Positions 6-52,990 of a DNA stretch of 64,000 nucleotides are shown in pieces (the stretch's first letter is position 1; each line of letters begins with the position of its first letter). The stretch spans positions 65,018 through 129,017 of the forward strand of contig JAUYKS010000002.1 of assembly GCA_030699935.1 (NCBI GenBank). The letters are read 5' to 3'. Made by a program: the position numbers and the translations under genes. This stretch comes from a bacterium. GTDB taxonomy: Bacteria; Patescibacteriota; SICC01. The notes beneath the pieces were generated by a model that was given only the letters and a program-made list of their open reading frames with translations, was not told the origin of the DNA and did not search any database.

Positions 6-1046
6 TTGTTCGACGAGCTGCAGCTCGCCAAAGGTACGCGGACGCAGAGCGGCGCGCACGCCTCCACCGCCGCCGGCAAGATCGAGAAGTTGCGGGACGC
101 GCACCCGATCGTGCCGCTGATCCTCGAGCACCGCGAACTGTCCAAGCTTAAAGGCACCTACCTCGACGCGCTCCCGAACCTAGTCCGGAAGGACACCGGC
201 CGGCTGCACACTTCCTTCAACCAGACGGTGGCGGCGACGGGCCGGCTCAGTTCGTCGGATCCCAACCTCCAGAACATCCCGGTCCGCACCGAGGTCGGCC
301 GCGAGATCCGCAAAGCCTTCGTCGCCGGCCGCGGCTGCAAGCTGATCTCGGCGGATTATTCCCAGTTCGAGCTGCGGATTGCCGCGCACATCTCCGGGGA
401 TGCGAAACTCTCGGAGCAGTTCCGCGAAGGCAAGGACATCCATACCGCGACCGCGGCGGCGGTCGCCGGCGTCGCCGAGGCGGACGTCACGCCGGAGCAG
501 CGCTACGCCGCCAAGGCGGTGAACTTCTCGATCCTCTACGGCGCGACGCCGCACGGTGTGGCCCGCAGCACCGGCATGCCGGTCACCGAGGCCAAGGAAT
601 ACATCGACCGCTACTTCCGGACGTACCCCAAGATCCGCGACTACATGGACGAGATGATCGCCAAGGTCCGGACGGACGGTTACGTTGAGACGCTCTTCGG
701 CCGCCGCCGCTATCTGCCCGAGATTAATTCCAGTTCGCATCCGATCCGCGAGTCGGCCAAGCGGATGGCGATCAACATGCCGATCCAGGGCACGCAGGCC
801 GACATCCTCAAGCTGGCGATGATCCAGGTCGACGCCGGCCTGGCGAAGGTTTCGAAGGATGCCCACCTCTTGCTCACGGTCCACGACGAACTCGTCCTGG
901 AGGCGCCGACCAAGGACATCCCGAAGGTCGCGAAGTTCGTGGTGGAGACGATGCGCGGCGCCTACGCGCTCGACGTCCCGATCGAAGTCGAAGCGAAGGT
1001 CGGACCGAACTGGGGCGAACTGCAGCCGACCGGCGGCCCCGCTTGA
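6..1046 (+). CDS. polA: DNA polymerase I, C-terminal polymerase domain (5'-truncated by window edge)
   Basis: Conserved Pol A family motifs (…DPNLQNIPVRT…, …RRAAKAVNFSILYG…, …VHDELVLE…); the ORF runs from the window start. Confidence 0.9.
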   Translation: MFDELQLAKGTRTQSGAHASTAAGKIEKLRDAHPIVPLILEHRELSKLKGTYLDALPNLVRKDTGRLHTSFNQTVAATGRLSSSDPNLQNIPVRTEVGREIRKAFVAGRGCKLISADYSQFELRIAAHISGDAKLSEQFREGKDIHTATAAAVAGVAEADVTPEQRYAAKAVNFSILYGATPHGVARSTGMPVTEAKEYIDRYFRTYPKIRDYMDEMIAKVRTDGYVETLFGRRRYLPEINSSSHPIRESAKRMAINMPIQGTQADILKLAMIQVDAGLAKVSKDAHLLLTVHDELVLEAPTKDIPKVAKFVVETMRGAYALDVPIEVEAKVGPNWGELQPTGGPA

Positions 1047-1092
1047 TTGAGCGGAGGCTGCATTGTAAGTAGACTGGAAAGTTACTTCCTAA

Positions 1093-3126
1093 ATGCGCAT
1101 GCAAGAAGAATCACCCGACACAACTTTGGCAGACGAGGAAAACGCTGACCTCACTGGTGCAGCTGACTTCACGAGCGAAGAAGCGTCCGAAGATGAAGCT
1201 GACATTGAAGATGCGTTGGCGGAACTAGAGTCCGTCCTCAAGGAAAGACCGGCGGACTCGAACGGCAGCGGGGAGCTGACGGAGGGCGTGGCGGTCGTGT
1301 TCGATTCGGCTGACGAAGAACCGGAGCCCTCGCCCGAAGTGAGCCGGGAAGAGGGAATCCGGTCGAAAGTGTCGGAGCTGCTGCAAATCGCCGCGGAACG
1401 ATGCTCCACTACGACGAAGGACATGCGCGGACGCGGGCGCTCGATCCAGGCGGTCAGGGCCCGATGGGCCGCGGGACAGGCGCTTCGGCAAGCCGGTGTG
1501 CCGATAACGACGATCCGTGAAGCCCTCGACCGCGGTTCCGAAACCTCGACTTACCAGATGCTAAGGACGACTCGTCCGGATGCCATATCCGACTTACGGG
1601 CGATCCGCGAACGATTCGGGGATTGGACCTATCCCGAAGCGCCCGAAGCGCCCAAAGTGCCGGAATCGTTCGACCGGACGGCGGCGGAGCGGCTGGTCGT
1701 CGCGACCTTGAACTATTTCGGTACCGATCAAGCCGAACTTTCCAAGGTTCGGGGAAACAAGGCCGGCATGGATGCGCGCTGGGTCTCCGCGCAATTGTTG
1801 CGACATCTGAAAATACCGAAGATGGGCGTCAGGGACTTGCTGCACCGTCCGTCGATACAGTCCGTCTACTGTTTGTCTAACCGCCGGGCTCCGGAACTGC
1901 ACGGAGCGGTGGAGGAAATCTGGGAAGGCTTCCAGAACGGCGAGGACTTTTCTGAACGGGCCCGGCGTATCGCCGAAGCCCGGGCGGCGGCGGCGCGGCC
2001 GGAGCCGGAACCGGAAGAACCCCCGGCGCTTTCCGGCGAGGAAATCGACCGTCTGATCCTGACCGCGGCCAACTACGTCGGTGTCCGTCCGGAGCAAGTG
2101 ATCGACTCCCGAAAGAGCCGCCCGGAGGCGGTGCTGGCCCGAATCATCGTCCTGACGCTATTGGAAGAGGAACTCGGTATGCGGCGGAAGCATGTCGCCA
2201 AGCACTTCAACCGGGCGGCGGCATCCGTAACGTCCACGCTCCGCAACGACAACATCCGTCATTTGCTGCTCAACAACCAACGCGCGCGGATCGATATCCT
2301 CAAGGCGTTCAAGGCGGGAGATACGTTTGAGGAACGTGGCGAGGAGCTCTTGCGGGAACAGCGGGAGAAGGCGCGGAAGGAAGGCAAAGAACCTCCCTAT
2401 AGCCGCGAAGTCCCGGCGGAGGAGCGAGAGCTGTTCGAGCGGTTCAGCGAGGGGAAAGAAGACGCCGTGAAGACGGTCGAAGACGCGTACCTGCAGCCGG
2501 TGCAAGACGCGATGCGGAAACGTCTGGAGGGCTCCGCGATCGGTTTGCCGGAACGGAAGCCCCTGGAGGTCTTACACCTGACCGCCCGTAACTTCGCGCC
2601 CGTGGCCGAACGGCACCGGAACTTCAAGGAATGGGTATTGCGGGTCGCCCGTCAGGAAGCCGAGGAGATGCTCGAGACGGAACGGCAGAAGAAGAAGATG
2701 CGAGAGGTCGACACGCGGCGCTATTTCACGGAGACCTACGAAGCGTACCGATCGGGAAACGTCCGTGCCTCCATGGGGCGGGCCATCGACTTTAATAAGG
2801 AGGACGGCAAGCGGGTCATGGATACGGCTAAGTCGGTCTACGCTGCTGCCGCCGAAGCGGCCAAAAAGAAGCTGCCGATCCCGTACTATGAGTTCCAGCG
2901 CCAGATCAAGCTCCTCAACAAGACCAGCGTGATCCTGCAGGACCCCGAGAGAGCCAAGGGGAAGATCCCGGCTGAGTCCCTGGCCAGGCAGGTCACCCTG
3001 GGCGAATTCGAGGGTGAGAAACTGGAGGAGCTGCTCGGATTGTTGCTCGAATCGGTCGTCCGGGACGCCGGCCTCAAGCTGGGGACGAAGCCCGGGCCGA
3101 CGCGGAAGCCGAAAGTGCATATCTGA
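1093..3126 (+). CDS. Acidic hypothetical protein with three tandem DnaA C-terminal (domain IV)-like HTH repeats
   Basis: 677 aa with an extremely D/E-rich N-terminus. Three segments (approx aa 95-165, 205-275, 325-395) fit the DnaA_C pattern (…SR…aR…amyL…S…IG…HsTV…) but are divergent. Confidence 0.6.
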   Translation: MRMQEESPDTTLADEENADLTGAADFTSEEASEDEADIEDALAELESVLKERPADSNGSGELTEGVAVVFDSADEEPEPSPEVSREEGIRSKVSELLQIAAERCSTTTKDMRGRGRSIQAVRARWAAGQALRQAGVPITTIREALDRGSETSTYQMLRTTRPDAISDLRAIRERFGDWTYPEAPEAPKVPESFDRTAAERLVVATLNYFGTDQAELSKVRGNKAGMDARWVSAQLLRHLKIPKMGVRDLLHRPSIQSVYCLSNRRAPELHGAVEEIWEGFQNGEDFSERARRIAEARAAAARPEPEPEEPPALSGEEIDRLILTAANYVGVRPEQVIDSRKSRPEAVLARIIVLTLLEEELGMRRKHVAKHFNRAAASVTSTLRNDNIRHLLLNNQRARIDILKAFKAGDTFEERGEELLREQREKARKEGKEPPYSREVPAEERELFERFSEGKEDAVKTVEDAYLQPVQDAMRKRLEGSAIGLPERKPLEVLHLTARNFAPVAERHRNFKEWVLRVARQEAEEMLETERQKKKMREVDTRRYFTETYEAYRSGNVRASMGRAIDFNKEDGKRVMDTAKSVYAAAAEAAKKKLPIPYYEFQRQIKLLNKTSVILQDPERAKGKIPAESLARQVTLGEFEGEKLEELLGLLLESVVRDAGLKLGTKPGPTRKPKVHI

Positions 3127-3132
3127 CCCGCC

Positions 3133-3189
3133 ATACTAACGTCGTGCGAAAAGGACATTCTCGCAAGCACGCCGACCCCCTGATGCCGG
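3133..3189 (+). repeat. Direct repeat copy 1: degenerate duplicate of the 5' end of the PHP-domain gene (pseudo-start fragment)
   Basis: ~48/57 nt identical to 4588-4644. In frame it translates VRKGHSRKHADPLMP…, a degenerate copy of the PHP protein's first 15 residues (of 4599-5447), then hits a stop. Confidence 0.8.
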
Positions 3190-3288
3190 TTGTCGTCGAA
3201 ACTAAAGTGGGAGACAATTAGGGTGAATTGAAACAGACAAAATAAATGACAAAGCGCTTGACACTACTGATAGAAACAACATGACAGG

Positions 3289-3307
3289 GGGCCGGCAGGC
3301 CCTTTTT
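3289..3307 (+). terminator. Small GC hairpin + T5 (ggggcc-ggca-ggccc-ttttt), candidate intrinsic terminator inside the AT-rich inserted segment
   Basis: Hairpin followed by a TTTTT run, seen directly in the sequence. Confidence 0.4.
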
Positions 3308-3361
3308 ACGTACAAAAAAGCAACCAACCCCTAAAGACCGGACACTAAACATGAAAACGAC

Positions 3362-4549
3362 ATGAGCGAAGAAACGATAACCGCCACCGACCTGGCTGCA
3401 GAGTTGGGCATCGAAGCTGAGCTCAGGGGCGATGCGGGTATCGACCCGGACGTCGAGGTTGATGTCGACGAGGGCACCGATCCGGACATAATCGAGAGAT
3501 ACGAATCCGACCTCGCGATGTTGCCCGAGGTCGAGGATCGGGAAACAAGCATTACGTTGCCGAGCGAACGGACCGACGACGAAATCTTCGCCGGCCAAGA
3601 CGTGTATGCTTTCCCGGTCGTGTCCGCCGACGGCACCCACAAACTGATTCGCGGTACGGTCAGGGATGTAACCCTGTACGACTTTGAACACAGCAGCCCG
3701 GGCTTCGCGAGTCTCATGTTCAGGGAGCCTCCGTACCGGTATACCGGAGTCGACCTGAATCACAGCTCCCTGATCCCGGCCGTGGCCATGGATGCGTTCA
3801 AGCGGGATCCTGATCTTCTTGAACGATGGCTGCAAGACGGGACTCCGGAAGACCTGCGTGAGGTCGACGAGTTGCGCGATTCGATAGAGGCGGCCCTGGA
3901 GTTTCACGTCACTGACTCCGAAGCGTTCGAACCCATTCCAGTGCCGGAGGAGACGTCGAAGCCGAAACGAACCGGGGTTCGGAAGCGTTCCGTCGAGTAC
4001 GAGATCGCCGCGCTGAAAGACGAATACCTGGAGCGGGCCTGGCGCGACTCCCTGTATGCCATGTCCAAGAAAGAAGAACGGGCATTGCTGGCCGCGGTCC
4101 AGACCGGTGACAGAGGAGCTTTCGATCAGGTCTTCGAGGGGCACCTCGGCCTGGTCGCCTTTTTCGTCGAGCAACAGAACGCCAACGGTACCTCCCAGGA
4201 ACTGATGCGTCGCGGGTCGGAAATCCTGCGGGAAACCATCCACGGATTCCAAGCCGTCAACGGGAACCGCTTGGCCGATGCCGTTTGCGAGAGTCTCGAT
4301 GCGCGGTTGACGGCCGACCTGTTCGAACAACTGGATGAGCGTAAGGAAAAGGCGAGCGAGGCACGTGAAAAGTTCCGGGGCGTAGTGCAGTTGGATCCTC
4401 AGGAAAAGCCCGCCCGCGCCGCGAAGCCTGCCGCCGAGAGTTCTCCTACTTTTTGCGATATTGATGAAGATCTCGATGAAGCCTGTGCGGTGGCCTGGGC
4501 CGGAGTCCATCGGTCCCTGGCCGAAGCTAGTAATCCGTACATGGACTGA
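3362..4549 (+). CDS. Acidic hypothetical protein with a sigma-70 region-2-like segment
   Basis: 395 aa, D/E-rich N-terminus. Segment …EERALLAAVQTGDRGAFDQVFEGHLGLVAFFVEQQ…SQELMRRGSEILRETIHGF… resembles sigma-70 regions 1.2/2.1-2.2. No recognisable region 4. Preceded by a ~170-bp AT-rich stretch. Confidence 0.55.
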   Translation: MSEETITATDLAAELGIEAELRGDAGIDPDVEVDVDEGTDPDIIERYESDLAMLPEVEDRETSITLPSERTDDEIFAGQDVYAFPVVSADGTHKLIRGTVRDVTLYDFEHSSPGFASLMFREPPYRYTGVDLNHSSLIPAVAMDAFKRDPDLLERWLQDGTPEDLREVDELRDSIEAALEFHVTDSEAFEPIPVPEETSKPKRTGVRKRSVEYEIAALKDEYLERAWRDSLYAMSKKEERALLAAVQTGDRGAFDQVFEGHLGLVAFFVEQQNANGTSQELMRRGSEILRETIHGFQAVNGNRLADAVCESLDARLTADLFEQLDERKEKASEAREKFRGVVQLDPQEKPARAAKPAAESSPTFCDIDEDLDEACAVAWAGVHRSLAEASNPYMD

Positions 4550-4587
4550 CGCGCCGAGCGGGAATCGGATGAGTTAGCCGCAGAGGT

Positions 4588-4644
4588 ATACTAACGTCGT
4601 GCGAAAAAGACACTCCCGGACTCATGCCGACCCCCTGATGCCGG
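4588..4644 (+). repeat. Direct repeat copy 2 (native 5' end and start of the PHP-domain gene)
   Basis: Matches 3133-3189 and contains the GTG start at 4599. Confidence 0.8.
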
Positions 4645-5447
4645 ACGCCGGCAAGGCGGACCTGCACATGCATACCACCGCGTCCGACGGCAACGCTTCC
4701 CCGAAGCGCCTGCTGGACCATGTCGAGCAGCGGACCGACTTGGACGTGATCGCGATCACCGACCATGACACGATGGACGGCGCCCTGGAAGCCAAACGGA
4801 TCCACGAGGCCGGCGACTACCGGTTCGACCTGATCCTCGGCCAGGAGGTCACTTCGACCGCCGGCCACATCCTGGGACTTTTCATCGAGAAGCCGGTTCC
4901 CAAGGAACGCTCCGCGGAAGAGACGATCCGCCTGATCCACAAGCAAGGCGGCCTGGCGATCGCCGCGCACCCGATGCTGGTGATGCGGTACACCGATCCG
5001 GACATGCTGACGGCCGACGGCGTCGGTGCCGACGTACTGCTCGGTGAGCAGTTCGACGGCGTCGAGATCGTAAACGGCAGTCCGACCCTGGGGAACGAGA
5101 ACGCGCGGGCCCGGCTGCTCAACCGCACCATATTGTTCCGGGCGGAAACCGGCGGGTCGGACGCGCACATCCTCGACGCGATCGGCAAAGGGTACACGCT
5201 GTTTCCCGGCCGGACCGCCGCGGACCTGCGCCGGGCGGTCGAGCAGAAGACGACGGAAGCGGTGAGCACCAAGTACCGCATCCGCGAACTGCTTCGCTAC
5301 GGTCGTTTCTTCATGAAGATGAAGTTCCGTGAGACCGGCAAACGGATGTTCGCCCTGTTCGGCCAAGGGCGGCGCAAGGAACGGGCCAGGGCTTCGGCTT
5401 CGGCGGATCCGGCATTGCGCGCGCCAAGAAAAAAGGCGGCGCGATGA
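4599..5447 (+). CDS. PHP-domain metal-dependent phosphoesterase
   Basis: …DLHMHTTASDG…ITDHDT… PHP motifs, 282 aa, K/R-rich C-terminus. Confidence 0.75.
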   Translation: MRKRHSRTHADPLMPDAGKADLHMHTTASDGNASPKRLLDHVEQRTDLDVIAITDHDTMDGALEAKRIHEAGDYRFDLILGQEVTSTAGHILGLFIEKPVPKERSAEETIRLIHKQGGLAIAAHPMLVMRYTDPDMLTADGVGADVLLGEQFDGVEIVNGSPTLGNENARARLLNRTILFRAETGGSDAHILDAIGKGYTLFPGRTAADLRRAVEQKTTEAVSTKYRIRELLRYGRFFMKMKFRETGKRMFALFGQGRRKERARASASADPALRAPRKKAAR

Positions 5448-11651: not shown

Positions 11652-12344
11652 ATGCAGACCGACGGATTCCTGCTCGTAGACAAGCCGTCCGGCTGGACCA
11701 GTCACGACGTGGTGGCCCATGTCCGGAAGATGAGCGGGATCAAGAAAGTGGGACACGGCGGCACGCTCGACCCGATGGCGACGGGGCTCTTGGTGATCGG
11801 GCTTGGTAAGGCGACCAAGGAGTTGGAGCGATTCGTCCAGGGCGACAAGACGTACGTCGCCGAGGTGACGCTCGGCGCGACGACGGCGACGGACGACGCG
11901 GAAGGGACGGTCGAGCCGGCGCCGGATGTTGCGGATGCGGCGCAGCCGTCGCACGCGGACGTGGCCGCGGCGCTGAAACGGTTCGAAGGCGAGATCGAGC
12001 AGCTGCCGCCGGTCTACTCCGCGATCAAGACCGGGGGCAAGAAGGCGTACGTCGAGGCGCGGAAAGGCCGGACGGTGGAGCGGAAGCCGCGCAAGGTGAC
12101 GATCCATGACATCGAACTGCTGGAATACGAATGGCCGATCGTGCGGTTCAGGACGACGGTCTCCAAAGGCACCTATATCCGATCGATCGCGCGCGACCTC
12201 GGCGAACGGCTCGGTACCGGCGGATACCTTTCGGCGCTCCGGCGGGAGGGAGTGGGCACGTTCGACGTGAAGGACGCGCTCGGTGCCGACGTGCTCGACG
12301 GCCCGTGGTGCGATCTAGCGGAAAAACTGATTCCGCTCACCTAA
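11652..12344 (+). CDS. truB: tRNA pseudouridine(55) synthase
   Basis: …GFLLVDKPSGWTSHDVV…KVGHGGTLDPMATGLLVIGLGKATK… catalytic Asp motif. Confidence 0.9.
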   Translation: MQTDGFLLVDKPSGWTSHDVVAHVRKMSGIKKVGHGGTLDPMATGLLVIGLGKATKELERFVQGDKTYVAEVTLGATTATDDAEGTVEPAPDVADAAQPSHADVAAALKRFEGEIEQLPPVYSAIKTGGKKAYVEARKGRTVERKPRKVTIHDIELLEYEWPIVRFRTTVSKGTYIRSIARDLGERLGTGGYLSALRREGVGTFDVKDALGADVLDGPWCDLAEKLIPLT

Positions 12345-22608: not shown

Positions 22609-24423
22609 TCATTGCGTGACCGGTTCGCACGGGCCGCTGGCCGAATCACAGACCACCTCGCGCCAGCCTCCGACGGCGAAGCTGCCGCCGGGGCCGTTGC
22701 TGAAGTTGATATCGTTCAGGCCGGAGACGTAGGTCACCACCGCGTTGTTGTCCAGCACCAGCCGGTTCGCGGTCAGGGCATTCGCGCCCGCGTTATTGTG
22801 CAGCCGGATCGTCCCCTTCGGCGCGGCCAGGATGATGTTGGTCGCGTTGTTCGAGACGTCGATCGCGTTGTCGGACGTACTGGTGGTCCCGAGCAGCAGG
22901 AAGCTGTTCGGCGTGCCGCTGCCGGTGAAGAGTACGTTGTTGCTGATGGTGACCGTCCCGTCCCCGACGATGACGCCGCTGTCCGCGCCGTAGCCGGGAT
23001 CGAGCACGATGGTCGCGTTGTTCGAGAACAGCATCGTTCCGGTCACATACAGGGTCCCCGTTATCCGCAAGGTGGAGCCGTTCTCGACGGTCAGGTTTCC
23101 GTCGATCTTGAGCGGCCCCATCGTCTGGCTCGTGCCGAGGGCGATCGTCACGTCACCGGTGTACGTTCCGCCCGACGCTCCCTGGGTCTTGAAGTCGATG
23201 ATGTTGGCGTCGGTGATCGGCAAGTCTCGCTGCGGCGGGTCCTCGCTGCCGGGGAAGCTGCTGCCGGCGATCGTGGAACCGTTGTCGGCCTGGAAGTACG
23301 CGTCGCCGCCCACGGTGAGCTGGTTAAGCGTGTTGGCATGGACATCTCCGCCGATGTCGACGCCTTGGGCGTAGGTCGGCGGGCTGCCCATGAACGCTTT
23401 GAACGCGAAGTCCTTACCGACCGGACTCCAGGTCATCGTCCCGCTGCTCCGCCAGCGGTCGGAGCTCTTGCCGGTGCCGTTCGGGTAACCGTTGTCATCG
23501 CCGACGCCCCAGGCCCAGTAGTTCGTCGCGGACCCGGACGTGTCGACGACGATCCAGTACTTCTGGCCGTTCGTCAGGGTCGGAGGGTTCGTCAGGCTGA
23601 CGTCGATGAATTGCAGGGTCGATCCGACCGACGACGCGTTCAGCGTGCCGCCGGCGACCTGCGTCCCAGAAGGTTGGTTGTTGTTGTCGGTGACGATCCG
23701 GATGGTCGCGTTGGCCGGATTGCCGAATTTCTTCACCTTGAGCGCCACCTTGACCAGCTTGCCGCTCTGGGACGTGTCGGCGGTGAACGCTTGGGCGACA
23801 TCGATCACGTTAGGACTGGAAGATTTCCCGAAGATGAAGTCGGTCACCGTGGCCGGATCGTGCTCGGGTGACGCGTCGGGGGCTGCCGTTCCGGCCACCC
23901 AGACGTCTCCCGACACAGAGGCGTTGTTCTCACCCGTGTGGTTGCCGTTGGAATAAGTGCTACCGATGATATCGGCGTTGTTGCCCATGGTAATGCCACC
24001 GGCACCGGCCTGCAGAGCGTATACGAAGTCCGCGTCGACCGACGGCTGCGGGCAGTCGTCGACCTGGATCCGTCGGACCAGCGTGTCATGATAGCCGGAC
24101 GCCATGATCTGGCGGACGTCCTGGCACGATTCCGTGTCGATCGTCTCGACCCTGTATTCGGTGCGGTTCCGGTCGTCGAAGGATGTCTCTACGGTGGCAC
24201 CGCCCGCTCCGAATCCCGGGCTGCGCTTTACCTGCAGCAGGCCGTCCTCGACGCCGCTCTCGGCGTTCACGATGCTCTGCGTCGAATCCAACCGCTCCTG
24301 GCTCTGCTGCATGGAGAGAACGGAAGTGGTCACCATCGCGCTGCCGATCACCACGATGATCGCGGAAAAGATCATCACCCCGAGGATGCCGACGACGCCG
24401 GACTGACCGCGTCCTCTGATCAT
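22609..24423 (-). CDS. Large pilus-associated protein: N-terminal hydrophobic anchor + beta-helix-like repetitive domain (ComGG/PilX-like non-canonical minor pilin or tip adhesin)
   Basis: Last gene of a four-gene operon after three prepilins. N-terminus GQSGVVGILGVMIFSAIIVV lacks Glu5. Long N/T/G-rich pseudo-repeats (…NNATIVLDPG…NNVLFTGSG…NNATNIILAAP…NNAGANALTAN…). Confidence 0.6.
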   Translation of the reverse strand: MIRGRGQSGVVGILGVMIFSAIIVVIGSAMVTTSVLSMQQSQERLDSTQSIVNAESGVEDGLLQVKRSPGFGAGGATVETSFDDRNRTEYRVETIDTESCQDVRQIMASGYHDTLVRRIQVDDCPQPSVDADFVYALQAGAGGITMGNNADIIGSTYSNGNHTGENNASVSGDVWVAGTAAPDASPEHDPATVTDFIFGKSSSPNVIDVAQAFTADTSQSGKLVKVALKVKKFGNPANATIRIVTDNNNQPSGTQVAGGTLNASSVGSTLQFIDVSLTNPPTLTNGQKYWIVVDTSGSATNYWAWGVGDDNGYPNGTGKSSDRWRSSGTMTWSPVGKDFAFKAFMGSPPTYAQGVDIGGDVHANTLNQLTVGGDAYFQADNGSTIAGSSFPGSEDPPQRDLPITDANIIDFKTQGASGGTYTGDVTIALGTSQTMGPLKIDGNLTVENGSTLRITGTLYVTGTMLFSNNATIVLDPGYGADSGVIVGDGTVTISNNVLFTGSGTPNSFLLLGTTSTSDNAIDVSNNATNIILAAPKGTIRLHNNAGANALTANRLVLDNNAVVTYVSGLNDINFSNGPGGSFAVGGWREVVCDSASGPCEPVTQ

Positions 24424-24905
24424 TGCGGCCTCGTCCCTACCGAGATGGATATGTCCGTGGTCTTGGTCCGCCCCGAAGCCGATTTGGAAAGCGTGGCCTT
24501 GAACCGCAGCGTGACCAGAGCCGTCCCGTCGCAGGTTGGGAAGAAGCGGACGCTGGAGGCGCTGGTGCCCGGCGACAACAGGTTCTCGGCGGTGCCGCCT
24601 TTGACGAATTCGATCTGCGCCCCGTTACGTTGGTAGGTCACGGCTCCGCCGGGAGCGGCCAAGGTGATCTGGTCTACGCTTTCGACGTTGCAGACGGAGC
24701 CTCCCGACACCCCAGTGGTTTCCGCGACCGTCCGTCCCAGGTGGGCGGTCACCCGGTCCGACTCGCGCTGCAGGCTCTGGACCAGCCGGTCGTCGACTTG
24801 CTGTCGGATGACCGTCACATAAAGCGTCCCGGCCGCCACGATCAGCAGGATGAATATCGAGATTGCGACCAGCAGTTCGATCAGCGTGAAGCCGGATTCC
24901 TTCAT
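24420..24905 (-). CDS. Type IV (pseudo)pilin with prepilin-peptidase motif
   Basis: MKESG^FTLIELLVAISIF… has the G/FTLIE motif with Glu+5. ATGA coupling. Confidence 0.7.
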   Translation of the reverse strand: MKESGFTLIELLVAISIFILLIVAAGTLYVTVIRQQVDDRLVQSLQRESDRVTAHLGRTVAETTGVSGGSVCNVESVDQITLAAPGGAVTYQRNGAQIEFVKGGTAENLLSPGTSASSVRFFPTCDGTALVTLRFKATLSKSASGRTKTTDISISVGTRPQ

Positions 24906-25417
24906 TGCCAGTCCGTCAGGTAACCGAATACGCTGCGCGATTTGTCCTGATTGCCCTGCTGCCAAGTCACCGTCACCGTGACCTTCTTCGTCTCTGGGTC
25001 CTCGAAGCTGCCGCAGGTCGCGCCCTGGCAGATCTTGTCTCCCGCGGACAGCGCGCCGTTACCGTCCGTATCGCTGCGCCGGACGGACGCGATGGTGACC
25101 CGGCGGGTGAACGTCCCCAGCGTCTCGCTGCCGGCTTGCAGGGCCCACGGCGGGTTGGTGCCGGGTTGGGCCGAGAGGCCGTAGGTACCGTCGGTGGCGA
25201 TCGCGTCCCAGTCGTCGTCCCGGATGACGCGGACCGCGTCCATGCCTTCTTTGAGGTGGCCGCCGACCGTGACCAAATCCGCGCCGTAGTCCGAGGTGGA
25301 CCTGGCGACCAGGACGACCTGGATCATCCCCACGACCCCGATTACGAATACGGAGATCGCGACGACCGCTTCCATCAGGGTGAACCCGCGTTCGCGCTGG
25401 CGTTGGCTACTCCTCAT
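24902..25417 (-). CDS. Type IV (pseudo)pilin
   Basis: …RERG^FTLMEAVVAISVFVIG… class III signal. Confidence 0.7.
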   Translation of the reverse strand: MRSSQRQRERGFTLMEAVVAISVFVIGVVGMIQVVLVARSTSDYGADLVTVGGHLKEGMDAVRVIRDDDWDAIATDGTYGLSAQPGTNPPWALQAGSETLGTFTRRVTIASVRRSDTDGNGALSAGDKICQGATCGSFEDPETKKVTVTVTWQQGNQDKSRSVFGYLTDWQ

Positions 25418-42387: not shown

Positions 42388-43767
42388 ATGAAGCAACCAG
42401 CCTTAATGTTGGCGCTGGGAGTGATCGTCGGCGTGGCCGCGGCGTCCTGGCTGCCGGTATGGTTGGCGCTCGGGTTGGCGGCCGTTGCGTGCTACCGGTC
42501 GCTTCTGCTGGCAATCGGCCTGGCGATCGGCGCTTACCGGATCATGCTGAGCCCACTCCTGCCCCCGGAAGCGGACTTGGCGGACCTTGCCGGGCGGGAA
42601 CGGACGGTGCGCGGGGTGGTAGACTCGTTCCCGGATTATCGGCAGGAATACCAGCAGTTCGTCGTCAAAGGGACGGCGGAGGGCAAAGAGGGCAGGACGC
42701 TGGTCCAGACCGACCCCTTGCTCGAGTTCTCGCCAGGCGACCGCGTCGAGGTGACCGGCCTGCTGACCGCGCCGCGCAACTTCGACGGTTTCGACTATCG
42801 GAGCTTCCTGGCCAAGGACGGCGTCCACTCGATCATGCGCCGGGCCGACGTCAACATCGCAGGAAGCAAACAAACGCTGGCGCGGACTTTTTACGCGATC
42901 CGGAAGCGCTGGGTGCTGCAGACGGAACGTACGTTCCCCGAGCCGGCCGCCGGGTTCAGCCTGGGTATCCTGATCGGCGAACGCTCGACGTTGTCCGACT
43001 CCCATATCGAGGCGTTCCGGAAGACCGGCACGACCCACATCCTGGCGCTGTCCGGATTCAACGTCAGTATCATCATCACGGCGATCGTCTGGGTGCTCGG
43101 ACGGAAGCCGGCGGCGCTGACCGCGTCCCTGGGACTGATTGCGGCATTCGTCCTTCTGGTCGGTCCGTCCGCGACGGTGGTACGAGCCGCGCTGATGGGC
43201 GGCTTCCTCCTGCTCGGACAACTTTTTGGACGTCCGCAGGCGGCCATGTACGGCGCGGTGATCACGGCCGCCGCGATGCTGTTGATCCAACCCCACGCTT
43301 TGCGCTATGACCTCGGTTTTGACCTCTCCTTCCTCGCCACCCTCGGCATCCTCTGGCTGGAGCCGGACATCCGCTCCCGGATCACGCGCGTCCCCGAGCT
43401 GGCCCGTGGAATCGTATCCGCGACGCTTGCCGCCAGCGGGGCGACGGCGCCGCTGATCGCGCTGACGTTCGGGACGGCCAGCCTGGTGTCGCCGCTGGCG
43501 AACCTGCTGGTGGTCCCGGCGATTCCTCTCCTGATGCTCGGCGGTTTCGTCAGCGTGATGATCTCGTTCGTTTCGTCCGAGTTGGCCGCCTTGCCGGCGG
43601 CGTTGACCGCCGCCGCGACCGTCCGTCTGCTCGGCGGAATCAGTTGGCTGGCCGACCTGCCGGCCGCCTCGGTCACGTTCGCGGAGCTGAAGGGACCCAC
43701 GGCGATCCTGCTGTCGGTGGTCGCCGCCGCCGGGATCTTCCAATTGAAACGGCCACGGTATGCGTAA
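42388..43767 (+). CDS. comEC: ComEC/Rec2 DNA internalisation channel, competence (membrane) domain only
   Basis: …HILALSGFNVSIIITAIVWVLG… competence-domain signature and many TM helices. Confidence 0.8.
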   Translation: MKQPALMLALGVIVGVAAASWLPVWLALGLAAVACYRSLLLAIGLAIGAYRIMLSPLLPPEADLADLAGRERTVRGVVDSFPDYRQEYQQFVVKGTAEGKEGRTLVQTDPLLEFSPGDRVEVTGLLTAPRNFDGFDYRSFLAKDGVHSIMRRADVNIAGSKQTLARTFYAIRKRWVLQTERTFPEPAAGFSLGILIGERSTLSDSHIEAFRKTGTTHILALSGFNVSIIITAIVWVLGRKPAALTASLGLIAAFVLLVGPSATVVRAALMGGFLLLGQLFGRPQAAMYGAVITAAAMLLIQPHALRYDLGFDLSFLATLGILWLEPDIRSRITRVPELARGIVSATLAASGATAPLIALTFGTASLVSPLANLLVVPAIPLLMLGGFVSVMISFVSSELAALPAALTAAATVRLLGGISWLADLPAASVTFAELKGPTAILLSVVAAAGIFQLKRPRYA

Positions 43768-44653
43768 GGCGGCCTACACGCTCGCGTTGGTTCCGCTGCT
43801 CGCCATCGTCTTAGCCGCCGTCTTCCTATCGTGGCCCGGCACCGGCACCGGCTTCAGCTCTGGCACCGGCTTCGGCGCTCCCGAGGCCCGGGTGTATTTT
43901 TTCGACGTCGGGCAAGGGGACGCGGCGCTGATCGACGTCGGACACGGGACGCAGATCCTGATCGACGGCGGTCCCGACCGGGCGGTCCTGCGCGGGCTCG
44001 GCGAAATCATGCCGAGGTTCGACCGCCGGATCGAGTTGGTCATCCTGAGCCATCCTCACCTCGACCACTACGGCGGCCTGATCGATACCGTGTCCCGGTA
44101 CGACGTCGGAGCGGTGATGCTCAACCAATCCGGATCAGGCAAGCCGTACGAACGGCTGGTCGAGGACGTACGGGCCGGCAGCCGGATCATTCCGGCCGCG
44201 GGTCAGCGTATCCCGCTGCCCGGAGGCGTGATCGAAATCTTGGAACCCGGCGTGCCGGGGACGGACTCCGCGAACCGGAAGCGGTTCTCCAATCCCAACG
44301 ACGCGTCGGTGGTCGCGCGCCTCGAGCTGCACGGGCACACTTTCCTGTTTCCCGGCGACGCCGAAGAAGCCGAAGAACGCCGTTTGCTCAGAAGCGGCGG
44401 CTTGGACGTCGAGGTACTGAAGGTCCCGCATCACGGCAGCAGCACCTCATCGACGGAAGAATTCCTCCAGGCCGTCACCCCGGATTGGTGCATCGTCTCG
44501 TCCGGCAAGGATAACCCGTACGGACATCCGAATCCGGGGACCTTGTCCAGGTTGGAAACCGCGGGTTGCCGGACCGTCCGGACGGACCGGCACGGGACGA
44601 TCACGTTCCGGCTGACCGGATCGCAGATGCGGGTAGTGCCACAGCGCCGTTAG
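43760..44653 (+). CDS. ComEC C-terminal metallo-beta-lactamase domain as a separate ORF with its own N-terminal TM helix
   Basis: …VYFFDVGQGDAALID…HPHLDHYGG…KVPHHGSS… MBL motifs. 8-nt overlap (ATGCGTAA) with the upstream ORF. Confidence 0.75.
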   Translation: MRKAAYTLALVPLLAIVLAAVFLSWPGTGTGFSSGTGFGAPEARVYFFDVGQGDAALIDVGHGTQILIDGGPDRAVLRGLGEIMPRFDRRIELVILSHPHLDHYGGLIDTVSRYDVGAVMLNQSGSGKPYERLVEDVRAGSRIIPAAGQRIPLPGGVIEILEPGVPGTDSANRKRFSNPNDASVVARLELHGHTFLFPGDAEEAEERRLLRSGGLDVEVLKVPHHGSSTSSTEEFLQAVTPDWCIVSSGKDNPYGHPNPGTLSRLETAGCRTVRTDRHGTITFRLTGSQMRVVPQRR

Positions 44654-51974: not shown

Positions 51975-52990
51975 ACGCTTTCAACCGATTGCTTAACCGC
52001 GCTTCGCAACCGGCAGCGAAACCTGCGAAACCAAAGCGTCGAACATCCCGCCCTGCAAAGTCCGGTGGGAATACCGCCAGCCGTACTCGTTAGCGTAAAG
52101 CTGTAGGTACTTCGGGCTGACGTGCCGGTACACGCCGGTTATGCCTCGTTTGAGGTGTGACCAGATATTCTCGATGTTCTGGGTGTGAACCGATCCGCTG
52201 ACGTACTGCTTCCGCTGGTGCTTGATACCGTCGTGGGTAAAGCCGACCTTGTGGAGTTTCGAGTAAACCCCATGTTCGTCATGGTAAATGGTCGCGTCCG
52301 GCGCGACGTTGAGGACAATAGGCGGGGTCAGGGCTTCGGTTCCGGTGTGGGGGACATGGACGAGCTTGGCCTTTCCGCCTCGTGAAACCATGCCGAACAC
52401 AACGGCCTTATCCTGATGTCCGCCTCGGTTACTGTGCTTCTTATCAGGGTGCCGGTTCTGGTCTGCCCCGCCGACAAACGTTTCATCCACCTCGACTTCG
52501 CCGGACAGCATTTCGCCGTCCTCGGCAGACATGAGCGTTCGTATCTGCTTGGCGATCCGCCACGCTGTCTTATAGGTCACGCCAAGCTCCCGCTCCAACT
52601 GCTTGGCCGAGATACCAGCGCGGGTCTGAACCATGAGGTACATGGCGTAAAACCACAGCCAGAGTGACGTGGTGGACTTCTCAAAGACCGTACCGGCCAA
52701 CGGGTAGACTTGGTACCCGCAGTTGCAGGCATAGCTGGTACGTCCCTTAACACGGGACAGCTCGTTTTCCCGTCCGCACTTCGGGCAGGTGAAATCACGG
52801 AAGCGGATTTGCCGTATTTCCTCTAGGCACGCAGCGTCATCAGGGAACCGCTTACGGAAGTCTGCGATGGTGAACCTGTCGTCCATAGGCACATATTAGC
52901 AGCTAACCTACTTGTAGTCAAGGTATAAGTGCCATGCTGCCAGCCTTGACTATTAGCACCTTTTGTGTTATGGTTAAGCAATTTTCAAAC
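51975..52990 (-). mobile_element. IS1595-family (ISXO2-like) insertion sequence, ~1 kb, bounds approximate
   Basis: Single transposase ORF. 11-bp terminal inverted repeats ATTGCTTAACC (51988-51998) and GGTTAAGCAAT (52972-52982). Sits in a low-GC islet. Confidence 0.7.
51993..52892 (-). CDS. IS1595-family transposase (DDE, N-terminal Zn-finger)
   Basis: …FTCPKCGRENELSRV…YACNCGYQV… zinc ribbon, HTH (…LGVTYKTAWRIAKQIR…), ISXO2-like DDE domain. Confidence 0.85.
   Translation of the reverse strand: MPMDDRFTIADFRKRFPDDAACLEEIRQIRFRDFTCPKCGRENELSRVKGRTSYACNCGYQVYPLAGTVFEKSTTSLWLWFYAMYLMVQTRAGISAKQLERELGVTYKTAWRIAKQIRTLMSAEDGEMLSGEVEVDETFVGGADQNRHPDKKHSNRGGHQDKAVVFGMVSRGGKAKLVHVPHTGTEALTPPIVLNVAPDATIYHDEHGVYSKLHKVGFTHDGIKHQRKQYVSGSVHTQNIENIWSHLKRGITGVYRHVSPKYLQLYANEYGWRYSHRTLQGGMFDALVSQVSLPVAKRG

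Follow-up and report, generated by a model that had tools for sequence, protein, structure and literature searches.

Phages, integrative and conjugative elements and genomic islands that use an integrase to enter the ends of tRNA, tmRNA or protein genes are bracketed by a direct repeat, which regenerates the end of the gene. Illegitimate recombination in transformation is known from Acinetobacter baylyi and Streptococcus pneumoniae, as homology-facilitated illegitimate recombination, double illegitimate recombination and short-patch double illegitimate recombination. In these cases, DNA is joined at microhomologies a few bases long with no dedicated recombinase, the host has uptake genes, and the donor DNA is the ordinary chromosome of a relative. 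In the type VI secretion effector/immunity arrays of Vibrio cholerae, as outlined in PMC5361080, new modules are stacked beside old ones in a slot between conserved genes, and remnants are left. Here we describe a locus that bears a likeness to these systems, the interval between polA and a gene for a PHP-domain phosphoesterase in a stretch of 64,000 nucleotides (the window) from a Saccharimonadia bacterium (Patescibacteria, Candidate Phyla Radiation). In this interval, a 57-nt direct repeat of the promoter and start of the PHP gene brackets a segment with a single gene, which we call the cargo. Judged by its sequence, the segment (3190-4587) appears to be ordinary chromosomal DNA that another lineage has in the same syntenic slot, and not a mobile element.

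The locus also differs from the described systems. Unlike integrase-mediated insertions, it lacks element-specific ends and further copies, no integrase was found within 6 kb or among the ORFs screened, the centre of the repeat is imperfect, and the insert starts with a fragment of polA. In contrast to the cases from transformation, the target is duplicated rather than deleted, both junctions would fall within one stretch of 57-60 bp, and the event is deduced from comparative sequence. Compared with the V. cholerae arrays as they are outlined, the genes are transcription-related and lie between polA and PHP, and a promoter and a start have been duplicated.

The duplicated start of the PHP gene

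The initial annotation had pointed out that a 57-nt stretch around the PHP start recurs at 3133-3189, and the alignment bears this out. Positions 3133-3189 (copy 1) and 4588-4644 (copy 2), both on the forward strand, agree at 50 of 57 bases, so that the identity is 88% and not ~84% as first estimated. The similarity covers the full 57 nt instead of being confined to fewer than 20 nt, and its edges are sharp. Matching drops to 3-6 of 20 bases on the left, and to 9 of 20 and then 4-5 of 20 on the right (background mean 5.3). No other direct repeat of at least 35 nt and like quality was found in the window. Either half-pattern of the repeat has exactly two occurrences in the window, and none of 100 shuffles contains it.

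The repeat contains a TATACT-type -10 box, 6 nt, a GTG and PHP codons 1-15. In copy 2, these are the parts in use, with the -10 box TATACT at 4587-4592, the leaderless GTG at 4599 and codons 1-15; the duplication thus regenerates the start of its target, as had been proposed. Copy 1 is the original promoter and start, left upstream of the insert. Its -10 box now reads CATACT, with the first T lost, and it is presumably inactive.

The translations of the two copies are MRKGHSRKHADPLMP (copy 1) and MRKRHSRTHADPLMP (copy 2). In the PHP frame, six codons differ between them, four synonymously. The seven mismatches fall on repeat positions 21, 26, 29, 32, 34, 35 and 38 (P = 0.002 for clustering). 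Perfect blocks of 20 nt and 19 nt therefore flank an 18-nt centre that holds all seven.

The PHP gene (4599-5447, forward strand), the target of the insertion, is intact. It encodes a TrpH-like phosphoesterase with the Pfam domains PHP and PHP_C and has orthologues in all relatives. We compared its start across 12 aligned orthologous PHP loci. TATACT-N6-GTG precedes the gene in 11 of them, and the twelfth has TAGAAT. The basic N-terminal peptide, which ends in DPLMP-x-AGKAD, is conserved; the DPLMP type is limited to closer relatives, and AIIP or TLIP takes its place in distant ones. The alignment across loci identifies the GTG at 4599 as the real start. By its position, the TATACT hexamer would be a -10 box suited to a leaderless transcript. 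Similar hexamers (TATACT, TATAGT, TACAAT) lie 6-7 nt upstream of start codons also at 11652, 16159 and 47192, a placement that suggests leaderless transcripts in the clade.

The nearest relative found is L167 (we refer to loci from other assemblies by such numbers), with 92% amino acid identity in the C-terminal part of PolA and 84% in PHP, followed by L003 and L171. No PHP homologue above ~84% identity was found in the protein collection or in the contig collections searched. In L167 and L003, the order is polA - X - PHP without a cargo, X being a resident gene of the slot. The stop codon of X (TGA) is followed there by 6 nt and TATACT-N6-GTG-PHP. The junction between X and copy 1 in the window is orthologous to this X-PHP junction (TGACCCGCC-ATACT in the window versus TGACCCGGT-ATACT in L167). 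Copy 1 therefore marks the former PHP start, and 3190-4587 is extra DNA. The view that this segment was inserted, first put forward from the window by itself, is upheld by the two relatives in which polA, X and PHP are contiguous without it.

The comparison also bears on the age of the event. In the alignment of PHP loci, the two copies are 88% alike, yet 79% and 75% identical to the orthologous stretch of L167. As they are closer to each other than to L167, the duplication is younger than the split from that lineage. One could instead suppose that an order X - stub - cargo - PHP is old in the subclade, that gene conversion has kept the copies alike, and that recombination between the 57-bp repeats removed the cargo precisely, once in L167 and once in L003. 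Repeats this long in direct orientation do promote precise deletion, the cargo and X families are both present in the basal lineage L165 and so are both old residents of the slot, and the low GC content at third codon positions (GC3) of slot genes in all lineages is no proof of recent arrival. However, at least two independent precise losses plus concerted evolution would be needed. The polA remnant described below is still 84% identical to the polA end of L166 and in frame with a single stop, which speaks against very long neutral decay, and other loci of the cargo family are without a comparable repeat. We consider this history unlikely.

Two further public assemblies of the organism, L001 (GCA_034375485.1) and L002 (a Logan contig), share this structure and are 99.97-99.98% identical to the window. 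Within copy 2, they differ from it by one synonymous single-nucleotide polymorphism at position 4631 (C/T, GAC/GAT), where L167 also has T. Single-base differences between the assemblies were also seen at 4354 and 5162. A chimeric contig, built from the reads of two co-occurring Saccharimonadia populations, would account for an insert that stems from another lineage, and shared stretches such as the 5' end of PHP are places where metagenome assemblies can become chimeric. The three assemblies (the window, the NCBI metagenome-assembled contig L001 and the Logan contig L002) come from different pipelines, however. The repeats are merely 88% identical and 57 nt long, and the left junction, from PHP codon 15 to polA codon -19, shares about 6 nt, too little to mislead an assembler. 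With an identical structure in the other assemblies, an artefact is hardly credible.

The polA-PHP interval (1047-4598 in the window) is hypervariable across relatives. It is empty in L005 and L168, holds only X in L003 and L167, a complete sigma-70 gene in L004 and L083, unrelated small genes in L084 and L171, a cargo homologue in L163 and L166, and a cargo homologue followed by X in L165. In every lineage, the genes in the slot have a GC3 below that of their core neighbors. For this reason, the low GC3 of the cargo was discarded as proof of a foreign or recent origin. No comparable flanking repeats were found in L003, L004, L084 or L163. A degenerate copy of the PHP 5' end upstream of the cargo in L163 was considered and, on realignment, could not be told from A-rich spacer.

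On its left, the interval is bounded in the window by the 3' part of the resident polA (6-1046, forward strand; Pfam DNA_pol_A, E = 4e-138), which ends in VEAKVGPNWGELQPTGGPA and the stop codon. The resident gene X (1093-3126, forward strand, 677 aa) matches Bac_DnaA_C and has orthologues in L003, L167 and L165. Its family is uncharacterised, with three helix-turn-helix repeats like DnaA domain IV (Bac_DnaA_C, E = 2e-32 in L165:6782-9202) and a fast-evolving acidic N-terminus. The polA-X junction is common to the window, L167 and L003. On this ground, we rejected a tandem duplication followed by random loss from an order like that of L165.

Origin of the inserted segment

The left end of the insert is a pseudogene fragment of polA, comprising the last ~19 codons and the stop (3184-3243, forward strand). 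Its sequence is CCG GTT GTC GTC GAA ACT AAA GTG GGA GAC AAT TAG GGT GAA TTG AAA CAG ACA AAA TAA, which reads P VVVETKVGDN, stop, GELKQTK, stop. Over 45 ungapped nucleotides (3187-3231), it is 84% (38/45) identical to the polA end of L166, 76% to that of L004 and 64% (29/45) to the polA of the window itself. The matches to L166 and L004 are significant against shuffled local alignments (P < 0.001). The PolA C-termini of relatives read VPIVVEAKVGDNWGEMKEIAT before the stop in L166 and VPVVVDAKAGPNWGEMKPVETSRK before the stop in L163. A second polA end was seen in no other locus examined.

This fragment is joined in frame to copy 1. The copy had been described as stopping after its 15 residues, which needs correction: the frame runs on for 10 more codons and forms a chimeric PHP::PolA open reading frame (ORF) of 25 codons (3144-3221, forward strand). 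Its product consists of PHP codons 1-15 followed by the polA remnant (MRKGHSRKHADPLMP, then VVVETKVGDN and the stop), and a TGG-to-TAG change closes the frame.

An intrinsic terminator is predicted further downstream (3285-3307, forward strand). It consists of the GC hairpin GGGGGCCGGCAGGCCC, with an 8-bp stem and -13.3 kcal/mol, followed by TTTTT. It is significantly similar to the terminators behind polA in L163, L166 and L004, and homologous hairpins with varying loops occur 3' of polA in L163, L165, L166 and L004. The small terminator, like the AT-rich segment of ~170 bp in which it lies (3190-3361, 172 nt, 43% GC), had already been recognized in the initial annotation. The conserved GCCGACCCCCTG block of both repeat copies (3171-3182 and 4625-4637) is complementary to the 5' arm of the terminator (3285-3297) at 11 of 12 to 12 of 13 positions, a match that is not significant by shuffling.

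An A-rich leader (3308-3361, forward strand), partly alignable to that of L166, connects the terminator to the cargo start. By inspection, GACACT at 3341-3346 is a possible promoter. On the other side of the cargo, the 3' flank of the insert (4550-4587, forward strand) ends in GGT right before the repeat, and no similarity between it and the relatives could be detected.

L163 and L166 natively have the order polA end - terminator - cargo - PHP, and cargo homologues are native between polA and PHP in L163, L165 and L166. The combination of polA remnant, terminator and cargo in this order identifies the insert as a chromosomal segment of a lineage with that native order. A donor-type locus would combine a polA 3' end of the pattern ...CCGGTTGTCGTCGAA(G/A)C(T/C)AAAGTGGGAGA(C/T)AATTGGGGTGAATTGAAACAGACAAAATAA with the terminator and a complete cargo gene behind it. 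The reverse scenario, in which X and copy 1 were imported into a cargo-bearing genome by way of a polA anchor, was rejected: the flanks (polA on one side; PHP, fpg and holA on the other) are nearest to L167 in nucleotides, and the remnant belongs to another clade.

A foreign segment could have brought its own PHP 5' end. By Campbell-type or homeologous recombination, a donor fragment, either linear with a PHP anchor or circularised, would have been integrated so that the two copies are the orthologues of donor and recipient, or hybrids of them. The mismatches indeed cluster where orthologues vary most, and the preponderance of synonymous codon differences fits as well. Copy 1 keeps states like those of L167 and L171 (CGC AAG CAC), with copy 2 derived, and the identical blocks of 20 nt and 19 nt could be the crossover zones. 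On the other hand, the polA remnant reveals a distant donor, with just 64% identity to the resident polA end where the sequence is otherwise highly conserved. The copies are 88% identical, where even the closest relative, L167, reaches just 75-79%, and PHP 5' ends of the L166 type cannot be aligned to copy 2 beyond the -10 box and CCGG. Together, these observations make an orthologous origin of the copies improbable.

The geometry of the locus, in which direct repeats bracket a single gene and regenerate the 5' end of the target, had originally been read as an att-like product of site-specific integration. On that reading, an integrase or transposase supplied in trans would have inserted a small non-autonomous cassette, and the 57-bp repeat would represent attL/attR or else a long target-site duplication. 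The identical blocks of 20 nt and 19 nt around the variable centre would suit an att core, and other origins just as well. The integrase search covered the neighborhood of the locus and a set of ORFs elsewhere in the window. Within 6 kb on either side, the precomputed Pfam assignments (Mur ligase, PolA, PHP, Fpg, HolA, S20, DHH) include no integrase or transposase. A screen of 30 further ORFs of the window turned up no integrase and one transposase of the IS1595 family, at 51993-52892 on the reverse strand (DDE_Tnp_IS1595, E = 8e-39, plus a zinc ribbon). This gene is 47 kb away and is the only mobile-element gene among the screened ORFs; its presence could be held in favor of a cassette moved in trans. 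IS1595-type elements make short duplications and mobilise only themselves.

The insert itself does not look like an element. Its single gene has no recombinase or transposase domain, no terminal inverted repeats pair the region of 3190 with that of 4587, and the duplication of 57 bp compares with 2-15 bp for transposons. Neither the repeat nor the cargo has a further copy in the window. The end of the insert is a polA fragment with a polA terminator instead of element-specific DNA, and members of the cargo family invariably occupy this one syntenic slot. Searches for phage or plasmid relatives of the insert or the cargo gave no matches, and an origin from either was rejected. Site-specific integration is accordingly very improbable. 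The other option of the initial annotation, a local duplication or insertion, came closer to the truth as far as an insertion event is concerned. A tandem duplication of X as the source of the cargo was dismissed, as the two proteins share no similarity.

Copy 1 could also be functional. The duplicated promoter and leaderless micro-ORF, by pairing of their RNA with the 5' arm of the terminator, would then act as a translation-sensitive attenuator of read-through into the cargo. The block of promoter and start (20 nt) and the ADPLMP block (19 nt) are unchanged in copy 1, positions 3171-3182 are complementary to 3285-3296 at 11 of 12 bases, and the minimum-free-energy fold of 3144-3312 disrupts the terminator (-40.7 kcal/mol, versus -34.7 kcal/mol with the terminator enforced). 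However, 16% of shuffled copy-1 sequences also disrupt it, and the z-score of the whole transcript is -1.3. The -10 box has lost its first T, the micro-ORF is an accidental PHP::polA fusion, and the terminator is simply the polA terminator in relatives. A regulatory role of copy 1 is distinctly unlikely. A known RNA element in the repeat or spacer was also rejected, with no credible Rfam match and the same fold z-score.

The cargo protein

The cargo gene (3362-4549, forward strand) encodes an acidic protein of 395 aa (pI 4.4), in agreement with the earlier description. The protein has an acidic N-terminal tail, a barrel (residues ~75-140) with helices up to ~185, a homologue of sigma-70 regions 1.2-2.3 (~216-318) and an acidic C-terminal tail. 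In a word-indexed search, the cargo matched only itself. The full HMMER search found a sparse family (P0002-P0008) with two conserved domains, which excludes a pure ORFan. An AlphaFold (AF2) model (mean pLDDT 59, pTM 0.33) supports the two domains only, not the tails or the placement of the domains.

The first domain (residues ~75-185, pLDDT 70-86) is modelled as a five-strand barrel with helices. Its best Foldseek matches are Tudor, chromo-barrel and SAWADEE domains, with probabilities up to 1.0 and E-values of 0.06-0.3, which supports an assignment of the predicted barrel at the level of fold class only.

The second domain had been noted in the initial annotation as resembling sigma-70 region 2, and profile searches confirm this. 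A profile of the helical domain from four family members matched RpoH (9e-8), SigK (1.4e-7), SigA (1e-4) and RpoS in the PDB, over regions 1.2-2.3. By hhalign, the cargo is colinear with the sigma factor in the slot of L004 (residues 23-114, E = 3.5e-4), and it also matches phrog_351 (E = 0.0015). The sigma homology ends at about residue 318, where the family members P0002 and P0004 end as well. No match to Sigma70_r3 or Sigma70_r4 was found in the cargo, and region 2.4 is absent too. In the alignment, the aromatic residues for melting of the -10 box are not conserved in the cargo of the window.

Without regions 2.4, 3 and 4, the cargo is not to be filed as a sigma factor. In having a homologue of sigma regions 1.2-2.3 but not regions 3 and 4, it is like the truncated or split proteins of the sigma-70 family, gp55 of phage T4 and SigO-RsoA of Bacillus subtilis. 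Its SH3/Tudor-type barrel is of the kind seen in CarD and the Tudor-like RID of Mfd, although no similarity of the cargo to CarD or Mfd was detected. Both kinds of module, truncated sigma proteins (T4 gp55, SigO-RsoA) and SH3/Tudor-type domains (CarD, Mfd-RID), are known to contact RNA polymerase. Its domains make binding to RNA polymerase most likely, in the role of an accessory factor or a sigma competitor rather than of a full sigma. This is in keeping with the earlier impression of a regulatory gene, which can now be made more precise: a Tudor-like barrel joined to a homologue of sigma regions 1.2-2.3. No described protein family is known to combine the two.

Two further observations concern this family and its gene. 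In L164 (2825-6777), away from polA and PHP, a sigma-70 gene, a gene for a 645-aa protein with a C-terminus like the cargo barrel, and a gene for a 258-aa barrel protein stand in a row, with tRNA-like sequences just downstream. The arrangement is a hint that the barrel domain and sigma may be functionally linked. In the window, a 430-aa ORF (3218-4510, reverse strand) runs antisense to the cargo, with codon position 2 common to both frames. It is rich in R, L, G and F, and is probably the shadow of an acidic protein and not a gene.

Proposed capture of donor DNA and its significance

With moderate confidence, we favor a microhomology-guided illegitimate capture of transformed donor DNA, with duplication of the target. 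The ancestral order in the subclade would have been polA - X - PHP. The donor would have been a different Saccharimonadia lineage of lower GC content, with a slot of the order polA - terminator - cargo - PHP. From it, a piece of ~1.40 kb, reaching from polA codon -19 through the stop, the terminator and the cargo to just before the -10 box of PHP, would have been captured within the opening codons of the resident PHP.

At the left junction, the proposed microhomology is (T)GCCGG, with ATG CCG G in PHP (codons 13-15) and GTG CCG G in polA (as in L163). At the right junction, it would be GGTATACT, the -10 box conserved at PHP promoters. In recipient coordinates, the junctions would lie in crossed order, so that the insert has the intervening 57-60 bp on either side. 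A template switch in the course of replication or break repair could have produced this without a recombinase, and so could the filling-in of a staggered break.

In such an event, PHP would have stayed intact, as the downstream copy supplies its promoter, the leaderless GTG and codons 1-15. The copy left upstream would be a relic, with a weakened CATACT and a 25-codon PHP::PolA ORF that runs into the imported polA terminator. This terminator would now end transcription from X and the stub upstream of the cargo. Only target-duplicating events leave PHP functional, and so an outcome of this kind would have been kept.

The proposed route of entry, uptake by transformation, is plausible from the gene content. 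The window encodes DNA-uptake genes, and its host may be able to take up DNA. ComEC-type domains lie at 42388-44653 (forward strand), where DUF4131 and Competence are followed by Lactamase_B in the ORF after them, so that the gene may be split or frameshifted. At 24420-24965 (reverse strand), a pilin-like protein is encoded that carries the N-terminal methylation motif (N_methyl). Natural competence has been demonstrated in cultured Saccharibacteria (PMC10633639). For transformation, illegitimate integration at microhomologies has been documented (PMC3240628; bioRxiv 10.1101/2023.11.22.568220), likewise by Hulter & Wackernagel (2008), as cited in PMC12359135.

Several points weigh against this reading. 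The microhomologies are deduced from relatives (L163 and L166 for polA, L166 and L167 for GGTATACT) rather than read from the donor itself. Homology-facilitated illegitimate recombination tends to delete recipient DNA, and a 57-bp duplication needs a template switch or a staggered break. Polarised by L167 and L171, at least four of the mismatches are changes in the functional copy 2 and about one is a change in copy 1, whereas a dead copy 1 should show more changes, spread over its whole length. Finally, with no PHP homologue above ~84% identity in the collections searched, insertion here is formally indistinguishable from precise deletion in the relatives.

A bolder combination of ideas can also be considered. 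The polA-PHP interval of Saccharimonadia would be a dedicated landing pad in which lineages repeatedly swap modules associated with RNA polymerase (a full sigma, the sigma2-Tudor protein, the protein with DnaA domain IV repeats) by transformation, and the upstream copy would in addition have been co-opted as a translation-sensitive attenuator of a sigma-decoy protein of a new class. We regard the two together as quite improbable.

The change described here is of an ordinary kind, unusually well marked by its scars, and it overturns no known biology. It provides a clean and datable footprint of gene transfer between Saccharimonadia lineages without the machinery of mobile elements. Of the donor, the scar retains the terminator and a piece of polA; of the target, it has the promoter and start in duplicate. 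This fits the natural competence of these reduced epibionts, and it shows how a regulator can be gained without the loss of an adjacent gene. Two leads follow from it: a hypervariable polA-PHP slot in which transcription-related genes accumulate, and an undescribed family of proteins that combine a Tudor-like barrel with a truncated sigma.

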